Shown: positions 41,931 to 50,580, counted from the first letter of the stretch. The stretch: 64,000 nt of DNA from Ideonella sp. MAG2 (GCA_004359425.1 PTEU01000002.1:462771-526770); one strand, 5' to 3'. Notes: a model not told the origin generated them from the sequence alone. Translations and numbers: made by a program.

Positions 41931-44069
41931 TCACCGAACCAAGTCGTCCAAAAACTCCGAGCATGGCTCCACGCTGGTCACCAGCAGTCGATCACGGGCT
42001 CGGGTGCAGGCCACGTACAGCAGGTGTCGCTCGGTGTTGTACACCTCGTCAAGGTCGGACTCGTCCATCACGCTTTCAATGCGTGACTGCAAGGGCAGCA
42101 CCTGGTCATCGCAGGCCATCACCGCCACCGCTCTGAACTCCAAGCCTTTGGCCAAATGCATGGTGCACAGTGAGGCCTCGCCGGGCGCGGTCTCCACGTA
42201 GTCGTCCAGCACTCGGTGGGGCAGGCCCGCCGCCTGCAGCGCGACGCGGGCGCGCTGCAACTGAGGGTCGTCGCGCACCACCACAGCCAGCTCATGCGGG
42301 GCAAAGCCCTGCTGCCGCAAGCCCACCAGCCAGTTGGCCACCGCCTGGATCTCTTCGGCCTCCGTGGCGTAGGCGGCCATCACCGGCGCTGGGCCATTGA
42401 ACACCGACACGGTGCCTTTGCGAGACTCGGTGTTGCCGTCCATGTCCGCCACCTCCGGCCCCAGCAGCCGGTCGGCCTGCTGGCGAATTTGGTGTGAGGT
42501 GCGGTAGTTGATGTGCAGCGTGCGCGACCGCCCGCGCAAGTCCACCCCCAGCGACTTCCACGAAAAAGGCTGCTGAAAAATTCGCTGCCCCAAGTCGCCC
42601 GCAAAGAACAGGCTATTGGGCCGCACTCTGCCTTCGCCGTTAGGCGCCACACCCGCCATGGCCGCGAGCATGCGCAATTGGCCCACACTCAAGTCTTGCG
42701 CCTCATCCACCACCACAAAGTCAAAGGGAGGGTTCTTCAATTGCACCAGCTTGGCCGCCAAGGTGGTGAACAGCCGAGCAGGCGTGGTCAAACCCTGCGC
42801 ATCCAGCCGCGCTTGCACCGCCTCAAACACCGCCCAGAGCGCTTGCCGTTGGGGCTCAGACAGCCGAGTCTTCCGACCCAAGCGCTTCACTTCGCGATAG
42901 TCCTCCCAGCTCTGCAACTGCCAGGCATCCACCACGTCCGCCCATTCACCCAGCACAAAGTTCGGGGTGAAACGCGCCAACAAAGCGCCGGGTTGCGCGG
43001 CGCGCTGTTCGGCCAAGGCAGCCTCCACGGCAGCCCGCTCGTCTTGCCGCGTGGCCAAACGTGGCTTGGGTTGGTTGCGGTCGCGCAGCCGGTCCATCAG
43101 GCGCAGGCCCATACTTTGCACGTCCACCACTTCCAGCCGCTCGGCCAGCCTAGGTTGGTGGCTGATCAGGCAGTTCATCTTGTTCCGCAAGGCATTGGCC
43201 AACGGCTCAGAAAAGGTCGTGAGCCACACCCGCGCCTCAGGGTGCAAGCGGGCCAGCGTCACCGCGCGGTGCAAGGCAACGATGGTCTTGCCTGTGCCTG
43301 CTGATCCAGACACCCGCGCCGGGCCACTGAAGTCCCGCTGCACCCATTGCTGCTGCGCAGGGTGCAAGAAGATGGACCACTTTTCCCAAGGGGCCGCCAA
43401 GGCCTGCTCCAACTCTTCGGCGCCACTCATCAAGCGGAAGCGGCGCTGAGCGTCTGGGTGGCTGAACGGGTCGGCGGGCTTGGCCGCGCCCAGGTTGGCA
43501 ACAGGCAATGGCTTGCCACCTGTGGCCATTTCCAACAAGGCCTCAGCCGCTTCGGCAGGCAAATGCTCAGCTAAAGCCAGCAGGCTGTCTTCGTCTGCCT
43601 GCTTCACATCGGCCAGCCAGTCGGCCGGCACACCAACGGCCAAGAGCGTCTCGTCCGCCAGCGTGGCAAACAGCAGGCGCTTGGGCGGCCGCGTGGTGCG
43701 CTCTTGCGCAACATCGCCAGCCACCCACTGCTCCACCACCCGCTCGCGAATCTCCACCCACTGCGCAGCACCTGTGCTGGGGTGCGTTTCCAAGCGGCGC
43801 CGCTCTGCCCATTGATAGGCCTTGTCGTGGTGGTCCACGTAGCACAACAAAAAGCTGCTCTCCGTTTTGTGGACGATCAAGCGCAGGTCACTGCCCACCC
43901 GCACCGACCAGAAGTGCTTGTCCTTGGACTTGTCGATGCGGTGGAAGCGATGACCAGGGTTAGCAGGGTTGACCTGCAGGTCAAACGCCGTGGTCTTGAC
44001 CAGCTTCTGCTCCTCAGCGGTCAGGCGTGAGAGGCTGTCGGTGAAGGTGTCGGAGATGCGGAATTGCAC
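41931..44069 (-). CDS. SF1 UvrD/Rep-like helicase with an N-terminal RelE/ParE-like domain
   Basis: 712 aa, GTG start 3 nt after the upstream stop. The N-terminal ~95 aa (FHRIDKSKDKHFWSVRVGSDLRLIVHKTESSFLLCYVDHHDKAYQWA) look RelE/ParE-like. Helicase motifs are GSAGTGKT, VVVDEAQD, FFAGDLGQRIF, NYRTSHQI, TMHLAKGLEF and YVACTRARDRL. Confidence 0.85.
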   Translation of the reverse strand: MQFRISDTFTDSLSRLTAEEQKLVKTTAFDLQVNPANPGHRFHRIDKSKDKHFWSVRVGSDLRLIVHKTESSFLLCYVDHHDKAYQWAERRRLETHPSTGAAQWVEIRERVVEQWVAGDVAQERTTRPPKRLLFATLADETLLAVGVPADWLADVKQADEDSLLALAEHLPAEAAEALLEMATGGKPLPVANLGAAKPADPFSHPDAQRRFRLMSGAEELEQALAAPWEKWSIFLHPAQQQWVQRDFSGPARVSGSAGTGKTIVALHRAVTLARLHPEARVWLTTFSEPLANALRNKMNCLISHQPRLAERLEVVDVQSMGLRLMDRLRDRNQPKPRLATRQDERAAVEAALAEQRAAQPGALLARFTPNFVLGEWADVVDAWQLQSWEDYREVKRLGRKTRLSEPQRQALWAVFEAVQARLDAQGLTTPARLFTTLAAKLVQLKNPPFDFVVVDEAQDLSVGQLRMLAAMAGVAPNGEGRVRPNSLFFAGDLGQRIFQQPFSWKSLGVDLRGRSRTLHINYRTSHQIRQQADRLLGPEVADMDGNTESRKGTVSVFNGPAPVMAAYATEAEEIQAVANWLVGLRQQGFAPHELAVVVRDDPQLQRARVALQAAGLPHRVLDDYVETAPGEASLCTMHLAKGLEFRAVAVMACDDQVLPLQSRIESVMDESDLDEVYNTERHLLYVACTRARDRLLVTSVEPCSEFLDDLVR

Positions 44070-44072
44070 GAT

Positions 44073-50500: not shown

Positions 50501-50580
50501 GTTTCATCCAACTCCCAATGCCTGGCCGGATACGCGTAGGGCGAGTTCAGGATGGGCTTGTCAAAGAACTGTGAACTCAT
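47518..50580 (-). CDS. res: type III-like restriction enzyme Res (SF2 helicase plus PD-(D/E)xK nuclease)
   Basis: 1020 aa. The N-terminus is FFDKPILNSPYAYPARHWELDETGQPT. Helicase motifs are LATGAGKTTVMAML, INDEAHHCY and QVIGRALRR. The C-terminus YRPDF...VVEIKG looks like a nuclease. Confidence 0.9.
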   Translation of the reverse strand: MSSQFFDKPILNSPYAYPARHWELDETGQPTQRIIEARRRAEFITPIPKPKKRKGVNAQQELDIADGISDEELKYHSSIINGVRAEVDKWRSLPNPSDWGVTPETARLLQHWRHHNFSGVRPFFCQVEAVETAIWLTEVAPARGRMAQTFLDHLDAANNDANPGLARLALKLATGAGKTTVMAMLIAWQTINAVRHPNSKRFTRGFLLVAPGLTIKDRLRVLLPNDADSYYKTRELIPADMMADLERCKIVITNYHGFKLRERLEVAKGTRLLLQGRGNGAMNTLETEGQMIQRVMPELMGMKNVMVINDEAHHCYQEKPVKVDSEDLKGDDKKEAEENNEAARLWINGIKAVQRQLGLNRVIDLSATPFFLRGSGYAEGTLFPWAMSDFSLMDAIECGIVKLPRVPVADNIPGAEVPIFRNLWENISKDMPKKGRGKAEGLDPLKLPTKLQTALSALYGHYEETFQLWQNEGIRVPPCFIVVCNNTSTSKLVYDYISGFMRQNVDGTEQLEFGRLPLFRNFDDNGQPLARPRTLLIDSEQLESGEALDDNFRSMAGPEIEQFRREIIERTGDRQAAEKITDAELLREVMNTVGKAGRLGESIRCVVSVSMLTEGWDANTVTHVLGVRAFGTQLLCEQVIGRALRRQSYELNAEGKFDVEYADVLGIPFDFNAEPAIAKPVKPRETVTVKAIKPERDAHEIRFPRVQGYRVVLAEDTMSAVFNADSKLVLTPDLVGPSITRQEGIIGQGVNLTLEHTRDMRTSTLLMHLTKHLLYSKFRDPGEEPKLHLFGQLKRIVKLWLDDHLDCKGDTYPAQLCYLELADRACERIKQAIDRASIEKGQSQIQAVLDPYNPVGTTAHVNFTTTKTTRWEASSQHCHLNWLIMDSDWEAAFCLAAESHPRVRSYVKNHNLGFEVPYLVGAETHRYRPDFILLVDDGHGPDDLLRLVVEIKGYRGEDAKDKKAAMETRWLPGVNALGTHGRWAFAEFSDVYAMQADFADKVSEAFNTVLAPLTQGEYRG

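Follow-up and report, generated by a model that had tools for sequence, protein, structure and literature searches.

Do five genes that are packed like one operon also form one system? The question is raised by positions 41931-50580 of a 64,000-nucleotide stretch of DNA from Ideonella sp. MAG2 (GCA_004359425.1, PTEU01000002.1:462771-526770), which at its full length is here called the window. Recomputed open reading frames (ORFs) place five genes there, all on the minus strand: a restriction subunit (res), an NYN protein, a methyltransferase (mod), an ORF of 209 amino acids (aa) and a helicase. In this order they are separated by 108, 11, 11 and 3 nucleotides (nt), and a Shine-Dalgarno-like AGGGGA stands upstream of the ATG at 44702, where the 209-aa ORF begins. 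A first-pass annotation of the sequence had given the same five positions, the same strand and the same four distances, and had also pointed to the operon-like packing and to the string AAGGGGA. It saw a Type III-like restriction-modification (R-M) operon with three extra nucleic-acid enzymes and offered two readings: a composite or layered immune locus, or a new five-component system.

The locus is likely to be a damaged representative of a three-gene defence module, res-mod-helicase, which is widespread and carries cargo in both of its junctions. The five-gene arrangement is not a product of chance, because each of the five genes has full-length homologues, and these keep their order and orientation across dozens of unrelated genomes. 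What belongs to the module and what is a guest can be told from a comparison of these loci.

The res-mod-helicase core

The res gene (47518-50580, minus strand) is an intact ORF of 1020 aa and encodes the Type III-like restriction subunit. Its product is a member of the BPTD_3080 family of restriction endonucleases (NCBIfam NF046055): it scores 1340.9 bits against a cut-off of 800, and residues 6-1001 align to model positions 1-969 of 970. Pfam recognises ResIII with an E-value of 2.1e-9 and RE_endonuc with 19.7 bits, just under the cut-off of 23.4. The homologues align over their full length with 62-81% identity, and the columns of the Walker A motif (GxGKT), of DEAH and of PD...ExK are invariant in the res alignment (A1). 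Judged by these motifs, Res is a superfamily 2 (SF2) helicase motor with a C-terminal PD-(D/E)xK endonuclease, which is the build of a Type III Res.

The helicase gene at the other end of the row (41931-44069, minus strand, GTG start) is likewise intact and encodes 712 aa. Residues 236-712 (41934-43364, minus strand) make up a UvrD-like superfamily 1 (SF1) core; UvrD-helicase and UvrD_C score 55.4 and 67.2 bits, respectively, both above cut-off, and the translation displays GSAGTGKT (Walker A) and VVDEAQD (DExx), as is typical of SF1A. The identities that the first-pass annotation had assigned to res, NYN and the UvrD helicase all stand above the cut-offs of NCBIfam or Pfam.

The N-terminal domain of the helicase (residues 1 to ~106; 43752-44069, minus strand), which is followed by a linker of ~130 aa, had been called RelE-like. 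At the level of the fold this is right. The AlphaFold2 (AF2) model of the domain (pLDDT 80) matches YoeB (2a6r), RelE (3bpq) and YafQ (4ml0) in Foldseek with a probability of 1.0, E-values of 4.5e-5 to 2.4e-4 and TM-scores of 0.69-0.77. A profile of the domain's sequence found no match in the PDB. HigB-like_toxin of Pfam reaches 17.8-19.8 bits in the window copy, below its cut-off of 27, and matches 21 of 33 helicase homologues at E < 0.01. No antitoxin gene adjoins the helicase.

To which of its neighbours is the helicase bound? One genome per species was scanned for relatives of res, and at least 589 were found. The best 80 of these are 62-78% identical and come from Proteobacteria, Acidobacteria, Planctomycetes, Chloroflexi, Cyanobacteria, Nitrospirae, Actinobacteria and other phyla. 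The loci surveyed comprise 87 fetched via res and 14 more fetched via the 209-aa and NYN proteins. Mod follows res in 75 of the 87. In 60 loci mod is complete and the sequence after it is long enough to judge, and 42 of these have a helicase gene. It always lies downstream of mod and on the same strand, and the full-length homologues in this place are 48-87% identical. The pairwise identity matrices of res and helicase correlate with r = 0.89 (Mantel p = 0.001, 35 loci), those of res and mod with 0.82. Because the helicase is present after mod in about 70% of the loci and co-varies with res, it is, by this comparison, a co-inherited third core gene and not an insert; the core is res-mod-helicase. 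Of the three enzymes that had been considered extra, the NYN protein and the 209-aa protein remain inserts, whereas the helicase belongs to the core.

The module is also found on plasmids. Plasmid p1NCPPB4222 of Pseudomonas avellanae (18967-27027) carries res, mod and a "3'-5' exonuclease", which is the helicase, with no inserts. The order is res-x-mod-x-helicase on a Gemmobacter plasmid, res-x-mod-x-x-helicase on a Rhizobium plasmid and res-DUF3883-(mod, unannotated)-x-helicase on a Sphingomonas plasmid. Plasmid pAQ5 of Picosynechococcus sp. PCC 7002 (L007) reads res-UPF0175-DUF3368-mod and then has a different third gene. The latter (L007:14717-16591) encodes 624 aa with ABC-ATPase-like and cytidine/dCMP deaminase domains, and L007 is a more distant member of the family. 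Jiella marina (L092:9515-13749) has two tandem UvrD-like helicase genes, which come after mod, a homologue of the 209-aa gene and a gene for 287 aa; its res-mod junction holds proteins with FRG and pP_pnuc_2 domains, and an integrase lies just upstream of res.

In NCBI annotation the family carries only a name derived from a locus tag. A literature search of limited reach retrieved nothing on a res-mod-helicase triad or on "BPTD_3080", and a description elsewhere is possible.

Variable cargo in both junctions

Across the loci the gap between res and mod (slot 1) measures 19-3858 nt and that between mod and helicase (slot 2) 3-4978 nt. Many loci, L040, L043 and L052 among them, are free of inserts, with gaps of 3-66 nt. 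From the two slots, and from the stretch after mod in loci that lack the helicase, 225 ORFs of at least 80 aa were collected. They are mostly co-oriented, and by BLASTP 156 of them are singletons. Pfam domains in slot 1 comprise GmrSD_N, Fic, HepT with NTP_transf_2, PIN, DUF1016/YhcG, Bro-N, Uma2, BrnT and NYN, those in slot 2 AAA_21/AAA_15, DUF4276, DarT with Macro, RhuM, DUF4411, SNF2 and HerA. PADLOC adds matches to SoFic (5e-119), HEC-05, HEC-01A (4e-122), PDC-S09, PDC-S13, PDC-S04 and PDC-S05, AriA, PtuA, GajA, Old and AbiLi. Both junctions are hot spots for unrelated, co-oriented genes, most of them of the defence or toxin-antitoxin type.

Such guests have a precedent. Payne et al. (2024) described embedded defence genes in Hma, BREX, DISARM and type I R-M systems and defined them as one to three co-oriented genes inside a multi-gene defence system, with a content that varies between homologous systems (bioRxiv 10.1101/2024.01.29.577857). 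The study left out Type III-like systems and the BPTD_3080 family (bioRxiv 10.1101/2024.01.29.577857). The window corresponds to this definition: the NYN gene lies between res and mod, the 209-aa gene between mod and helicase, and the contents of the two slots vary in nearly every locus. Our literature search, within its limited reach, found no report of embedded genes for the BPTD_3080 res family.

Might all five proteins nevertheless work together, as an integrated multi-effector system for which the restriction genes are the scaffold? Their common orientation and the short gaps of 3-108 nt would suit such a system, as would the facts that homologues of the NYN and the 209-aa gene are neighbours on one other contig (P0026) and that the family of the 209-aa protein occurs almost only inside this res-mod-helicase system. 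The five-gene set, however, recurs in none of the about 100 related loci (87 + 14 fetched), and the slots of most loci are filled with unrelated genes, as the share of singletons indicates. Insert-free loci show that Res, Mod and helicase need no inserts; the two neighbours on P0026 persist without res, mod and helicase; and the Mod of the window is catalytically dead (see below). We therefore hold an integrated five-protein system to be very improbable, and a five-gene system as such was rejected, its composition being absent from the 87 + 14 loci. The gene-neighbourhood survey that the first-pass annotation had proposed accordingly came out divided: the helicase does follow mod and NYN homologues do sit in slot 1, but the five are together in no other locus of the sample. 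Of its two readings, the composite or layered locus is the one borne out, by the variable slots and by the decayed mod. The annotation had recognised no named defence system in the five genes, and PADLOC, when run, returned no match to a complete system either.

The NYN gene in slot 1

The cargo of slot 1 is a gene (46477-47409, minus strand) for an NYN protein of 310 aa, PIN-like and of the LabA/DUF88 type, with an intact core. It scores 45.7 bits with PF01936 (gathering cut-off 24.2), and D16, D73, D201, D207, D226 and D228 are invariant among its homologues. The relatives usually have 283 aa and are 68-91% identical; the tail of the window copy is ~22 residues longer. Its last ~28 codons (46480-46563, minus strand) are specific to the window and are read through over a deletion scar, to which we return with mod.

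The family at large is big (more than 6578 clusters). Three close homologues that were checked (P0095, P0154 and P0075; 69-86% identical) all lie between res and mod; their hosts are Comamonadaceae bacterium PBBC1, Hylemonella gracilis and a metagenome contig. Slot 1 holds an NYN homologue also in L008, L012 and L087. Because close homologues sit in the same slot elsewhere, res-NYN-mod is a recurrent sub-variant, especially in Burkholderiales. The window protein is a putative RNase. PADLOC matches it weakly to HEC-09 (E = 6.7e-4).

One of these hosts offers a side view of the scaffold. In Comamonadaceae bacterium PBBC1 (L097:5750-8804, NKIP01000004.1) res is split over three frames and is uncalled; the NYN, mod, AAA_21 and DUF4276 genes and the helicase are still intact. 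L097 is either another decaying copy or the result of sequencing errors.

The 209-aa gene in slot 2

The first place in slot 2 is taken by the gene of the 209-aa protein (44073-44702, minus strand, counted from the ATG; the longest ORF starts from a TTG at 44717). The family is rare and unannotated: 67 clusters in 5.8 billion proteins, all "hypothetical" or unnamed and with no Pfam domain recorded. A helical N-terminal domain of ~65 aa precedes a putative nuclease domain (residues ~68-170).

The GIY-YIG label that the first-pass annotation had attached to this protein is plausible by its conserved residues, but stays below every threshold applied. At default thresholds Pfam, NCBIfam and PADLOC give no match. 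PF01541 (GIY-YIG) reaches 14.9 bits against a cut-off of 22.6 (E = 0.034). Under relaxed Pfam settings, GIY_YIG_2 (PF20815) appears in 9 of 31 family members (best E = 0.026) and GIY-YIG in 2 of 31, all below threshold. Invariant in the 31 members are G71, Y73, Y94, G96, R103, H107, Y139, E144 and N167. They fit the pattern GIY...YIG...R...E...N, and their catalytic roles we presume by analogy with UvrC and I-TevI. In the AF2 model (pLDDT 90) the order of strands and helices at 71-155 fits the beta-beta-alpha-beta-alpha core of GIY-YIG nucleases. A Foldseek search with this model has no significant result in the PDB (best E = 0.46) and yields only weak matches to endonuclease II or GIY-YIG proteins in BFVD (E = 0.04-0.6); the family profile, run against PDB sequences, retrieves no GIY-YIG protein, just spurious matches to Gtr2. 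The protein is probably a divergent GIY-YIG nuclease, an assignment for which the below-threshold Pfam matches and the residue pattern are the only grounds.

The placement of the gene is peculiar. In 7 of 9 contexts (the window, L088/L089, L090/L091, L092, L093/L094, L095 and L096) it begins 4-92 nt past the mod stop and is first in the slot, even where GmrSD, HNH or other cargo lies behind it. Two contexts deviate: in L011 it comes after a truncated fragment of the helicase, and the other is the contig P0026. Its spread is patchy: apart from the window, just one of the 87 loci of the res survey (L011) has it. Its G+C content (GC) is 44.9% in the window, where the surroundings have 60-64%, and lies 9-23 points under both flanks in 6 of 7 other loci (L088, L090, L092, L093, L095 and L096); in the seventh, L011, only mod is higher in GC. 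Compared with the closest relative, L088, the 209-aa protein is 75% identical, the C-terminus of Mod 96% and the helicase 87%.

Is it then a free-standing selfish gene of the homing-endonuclease type, with the highly conserved 3' end of mod or the mod-helicase junction of this family as its target? The idea concerns this gene only and is compatible with the damaged three-gene module as the explanation of the locus. The fixed place ahead of other cargo, the patchy spread within a family of 67 clusters, the deviant GC and the lower identity than in either flank all speak for it, and so do the size and the layout of a nuclease plus a small domain, which resemble those of Seg-type GIY-YIG endonucleases. 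Yet the GIY-YIG assignment itself is below threshold. In L011 the gene does not follow mod, and on P0026 its neighbour is NYN, which leaves no more than ~366 nt in the place of mod. No target site or co-conversion tract could be defined, and a conservation lower than that of the flanks fits fast-evolving cargo equally well. We consider homing possible for this one gene, though on balance doubtful.

Two of the contexts deserve a description of their own. In L011 (18916-20339; a Nitrospirota metagenome-assembled genome) the helicase is cut to an ORF of 263 aa that comprises the RelE-fold domain and the linker only; the GIY-like gene follows directly, and then come unknown genes for 358 and 166 aa. 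On P0026 (ENA ERZ1426599, positions 6793-8624 of the listed stretch) a gene for a 280-aa NYN protein, an ORF of 34 aa and the GIY-like gene adjoin. According to the gene listing, from which alone this contig is known, they sit among metabolic genes, and res, mod and helicase are missing. P0026 appears to be what is left of an arrangement like that of the window after further decay, with the cargo as the sole survivor.

Two deletions in mod

The methyltransferase gene of the window (44714-46465, minus strand, GTG start) was identified correctly by the first-pass annotation, inasmuch as Pfam finds N6_N4_Mtase and PADLOC finds MTase_III (model PDLC03632, 802 bits). What escaped it is that the gene is a deletion derivative. 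It encodes 583 aa, whereas relatives have 930-1030. The Pfam match covers profile positions 1-127 of 221 only, versus 1-217 in intact Mods, and the best stretch with the PADLOC model is positions 84-454 of 983. With the intact Mod of P. avellanae as query, tblastn covers only residues 54-435 and 741-958, both in the same frame. The remnant keeps the N-terminal region, DPPY, a variable segment resembling a target recognition domain (TRD) and a conserved C-terminal domain of ~210 aa. According to a MAFFT alignment of Mods, it has lost motif I (DPTCGSGTT) and ~300 further residues. An active Type III Mod has both DPPY and motif I; the relatives have them, and the window retains DPPY only.

The larger loss, scar 2, is an in-frame junction (...FSNVWT / VVFIGPEFG...; 45338-45352, minus strand) at which ~305 codons of mod are gone. 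The tblastn segments end at 45338 and 45349, and DNA similarity to L088, in which mod is intact over the deletion point, begins at 45350. The smaller one, scar 1 (46466-46563, minus strand), lacks ~140 nt relative to L098 and L100 in a DNA alignment. It took the stop codon of NYN, the spacer that follows and the 5' end of mod, with its start codon and about the first 40 codons, including RKNIPTAE. The loss of the NYN stop codon explains the extra tail of the NYN protein. Frame translations show that homology to mod extends upstream of the GTG to ~46516, where no start codon is found, because the same scar removed the start region of mod. All other loci have a full-length mod, and the deletion is common to none of the ~100 relatives.

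A beta-class methyltransferase without motif I cannot bind S-adenosylmethionine (AdoMet). Because motif I is lost, the Mod of the window, judged by its sequence, cannot methylate. A Type III Res needs Mod to recognise DNA, so this copy has most likely lost the restriction function as well. Comparison of the window with its nearest relatives gives a ratio of nonsynonymous to synonymous substitutions (dN/dS) of 0.04-0.12 in the five computable cases, which include the mod remnants; for the 209-aa gene dS is saturated, and the gene is therefore outside this set. That dN/dS is low even in the remnants and that the other four ORFs are intact suggests that the deletions are recent and that the low values mostly reflect the history before them.

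Could the short Mod be functional? It might serve as a non-catalytic specificity or assembly subunit in a system that is still active, protection being provided in trans or not needed. The in-frame deletion, the retained N-terminal region, DPPY, TRD-like segment and C-terminal domain, the intact ORFs of Res and helicase and the low dN/dS of the remnants would agree with such a role. There are also other short Mod homologues. Their breakpoints differ, however, which is more like independent decay; the natural start codon and the N-terminal motif of the window's Mod are gone too; and the low dN/dS mostly predates the recent deletion. An active Res that is combined with a non-methylating Mod would, as is established for Type III systems and would be expected to apply here, attack the host's own chromosome. 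A working short Mod is in our judgement quite unlikely.

The other short homologues (P0310, P0311, P0312 and P0319; 538-729 aa) come from a library of 1.8 billion proteins. Each has a different in-frame internal deletion, which hits the methyltransferase core or the TRD and leaves both conserved ends of the protein in place. In this family mod thus seems to have suffered internal deletion repeatedly, although some cases could be artefacts of metagenome assembly. A single inherited lineage of short Mods was considered and rejected because of the differing breakpoints. Another peculiarity is the composition of the TRD-like part (45350-45776): it has 51% GC and is 37% identical to L088, versus 96% in the adjacent C-terminal domain. 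This contrast suggests that the specificity region of mod has been swapped by recombination.

Some points weigh against the picture of a damaged three-gene module. The helicase is absent from 18 of the 60 loci and may therefore be dispensable or replaceable. Phage defence by the triad and the action of the helicase are putative, and co-transcription is deduced from spacing only. The low dN/dS of the mod remnants (0.04-0.12) leaves room for a residual, non-catalytic role of the short Mod. In principle, the deletions could also be assembly errors; against this, the frame or a plausible start is preserved at both, and there is no repeat that could account for a collapse.

Surroundings of the locus

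In the spacer between res and NYN (47410-47517, minus strand; 108 nt), which forms the left edge of slot 1, a consensus scan detected neither a promoter nor a terminator on the minus strand. The scan's counts of promoters and terminators did not differ from those in shuffled sequence; it is uninformative on co-transcription.

According to Pfam, the flanking genes are those of an alanine racemase, an EamA protein, a glutathione peroxidase and a thioesterase on one side and of a GNAT acetyltransferase, an aminotransferase and a PfkB kinase on the other. The neighbouring genes scanned with Pfam are either housekeeping genes or have no match, and no integrase is among them. Neither a tRNA gene nor any meaningful flanking direct or inverted repeat was found around the locus. 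Housekeeping flanks and the lack of tRNA, integrase and flanking repeats together mean that the locus is a compact chromosomal island or insert of about 9.7-10 kb. An ORF of 217 aa (41204-41857, plus strand) converges with the helicase. Its GC is low (53.5%), Pfam has no match for it, and none of the fetched loci contains a homologue. This ORF may be further foreign DNA at the edge of the island, to which its membership is uncertain.

How the module may work and why it matters

A tentative sequence of events can be sketched. The chromosomal insert of ~9.7 kb carries the module of res (SF2 motor plus nuclease), mod and RelE-fold/SF1 helicase, with slot 1 filled by the putative NYN RNase and slot 2 by the small, probably GIY-YIG-type nuclease. 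In an intact system, Mod would mark host sites and lend Res its sequence specificity; Res would translocate along unmarked DNA and cut it; the helicase would either unwind or degrade the cut DNA or act as a second-line effector through its RelE-like domain. The cargo genes would each act independently, as do those embedded in other host systems. In the copy of the window, two deletions have cost mod its start and its AdoMet-binding half. Restriction would be off, only the cargo and perhaps the helicase would still function, and the intact NYN, GIY-like and helicase genes may act independently, probably co-transcribed from a promoter of res or from the 108-nt spacer.

Beyond the window, a bolder view can be offered, for which we claim less than even chances. 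The triad may be an uncharacterised three-component immune system, different from classical Type III R-M and present in at least 589 species of most bacterial phyla. When restriction is triggered or blocked, the helicase would contribute a further activity through its RelE-like domain, such as mRNA cleavage or abortive infection; the junctions would be dedicated landing sites for defence cargo; and the GIY-like protein would be a fourth component peculiar to this system, or else a homing endonuclease specialised on it. If this is true, the family is a large untapped source for discovery by "guilt by embedding".

The damaged copy of the window is unlikely to teach a new mechanism; its family is more useful. 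The conserved RelE-fold/UvrD helicase is an unstudied third component of a very widespread restriction-type system. The cargo-slot principle is extended to a Type III-like scaffold, with hundreds of loci to be mined for defence genes; they are a new source of candidates because most slot ORFs have no relative among the sampled loci. Finally, cargo can outlast its scaffold, which has decayed in mod (here and in other homologues) and in res (L097); that genes are packed like an operon is therefore by itself no proof of joint function.

Comparison with known systems

The closest relatives of the module are the Type III R-M systems such as EcoP15I and EcoP1I. Classically, these consist of mod and res only, and restriction requires ATP and inversely oriented, unmethylated sites. 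They share with the family a Res of ~1000 aa, in which the ResIII SF2 motifs are followed by a PD-(D/E)xK domain, and a beta-class N6_N4 Mod with DPPY before the variable region and motif I, for which MTase_III is the best PADLOC match. The differences are substantial. In the family res precedes mod; Mod has ~950 aa, with an extra conserved C-terminal domain of ~210 aa and the N-terminal RKNIPTAE; the RelE-fold/UvrD helicase is a conserved third gene; and the junctions hold cargo. The REase_III models of PADLOC barely match the Res of the window (18 bits), and its Mod is without motif I.

Identity with Hma, DISARM, BREX or Gabija was rejected, as PADLOC gave no system-level match. The named PADLOC matches of res, mod and helicase are MTase_III, a weak REase_III, GajB and NERD+UvrD only, and there is no Hma model among the listed matches of these three genes (for the helicase, the best 25 of 38). 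With the UvrD-like defence helicases, such as GajB of Gabija, the helicase shares the UvrD/PcrA-like SF1A core (PADLOC GajB, E = 3.8e-18; NERD+UvrD, E = 2.1e-23). In contrast to Gabija, a GajA partner is missing, the RelE/ParE N-domain and the linkage to res and mod are specific to the family, and the scores fall far short of family level.

The predicted fold of helicase residues 1 to ~106 is that of the ribosome-dependent mRNA endonuclease toxins RelE, YoeB, YafQ and HigB and of the RelE-fused CRISPR effector Cami1. Unlike the toxins, the domain forms part of a helicase, and no antitoxin gene lies next to it; its catalytic competence is putative. The 209-aa protein resembles the Seg proteins of phage T4 and the GIY-YIG restriction enzymes Eco29kI and Hpy188I in its small size and its GxY...YxG...R...E...N pattern, and likewise in the fixed intergenic position of its gene between conserved genes and in the deviant composition. 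It differs from all of them in that the putative nuclease is C-terminal to a novel domain of 65 aa and that no sequence or fold match is significant.

As a host of cargo, the module is most like Hma, BREX, DISARM and type I R-M, in which diverse co-oriented genes are likewise nested in a methylase-containing defence system. Cargo known from there recurs here: HEC-01A, HEC-05/GmrSD, the PDC-S series, ABC ATPases of the Septu/PARIS type and NYN proteins of the HEC-09 type. HEC-09, which is embedded in Hma, is a single NYN/PIN-like protein in a helicase-methylase system, just as the NYN protein of the window is, although the similarity of the two is marginal. HEC-09 did not protect against any phage tested (bioRxiv 10.1101/2024.01.29.577857), and a defence role of the NYN cargo is therefore unproven. 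In one respect the copy in the window stands apart from these hosts: its scaffold is itself partly destroyed.

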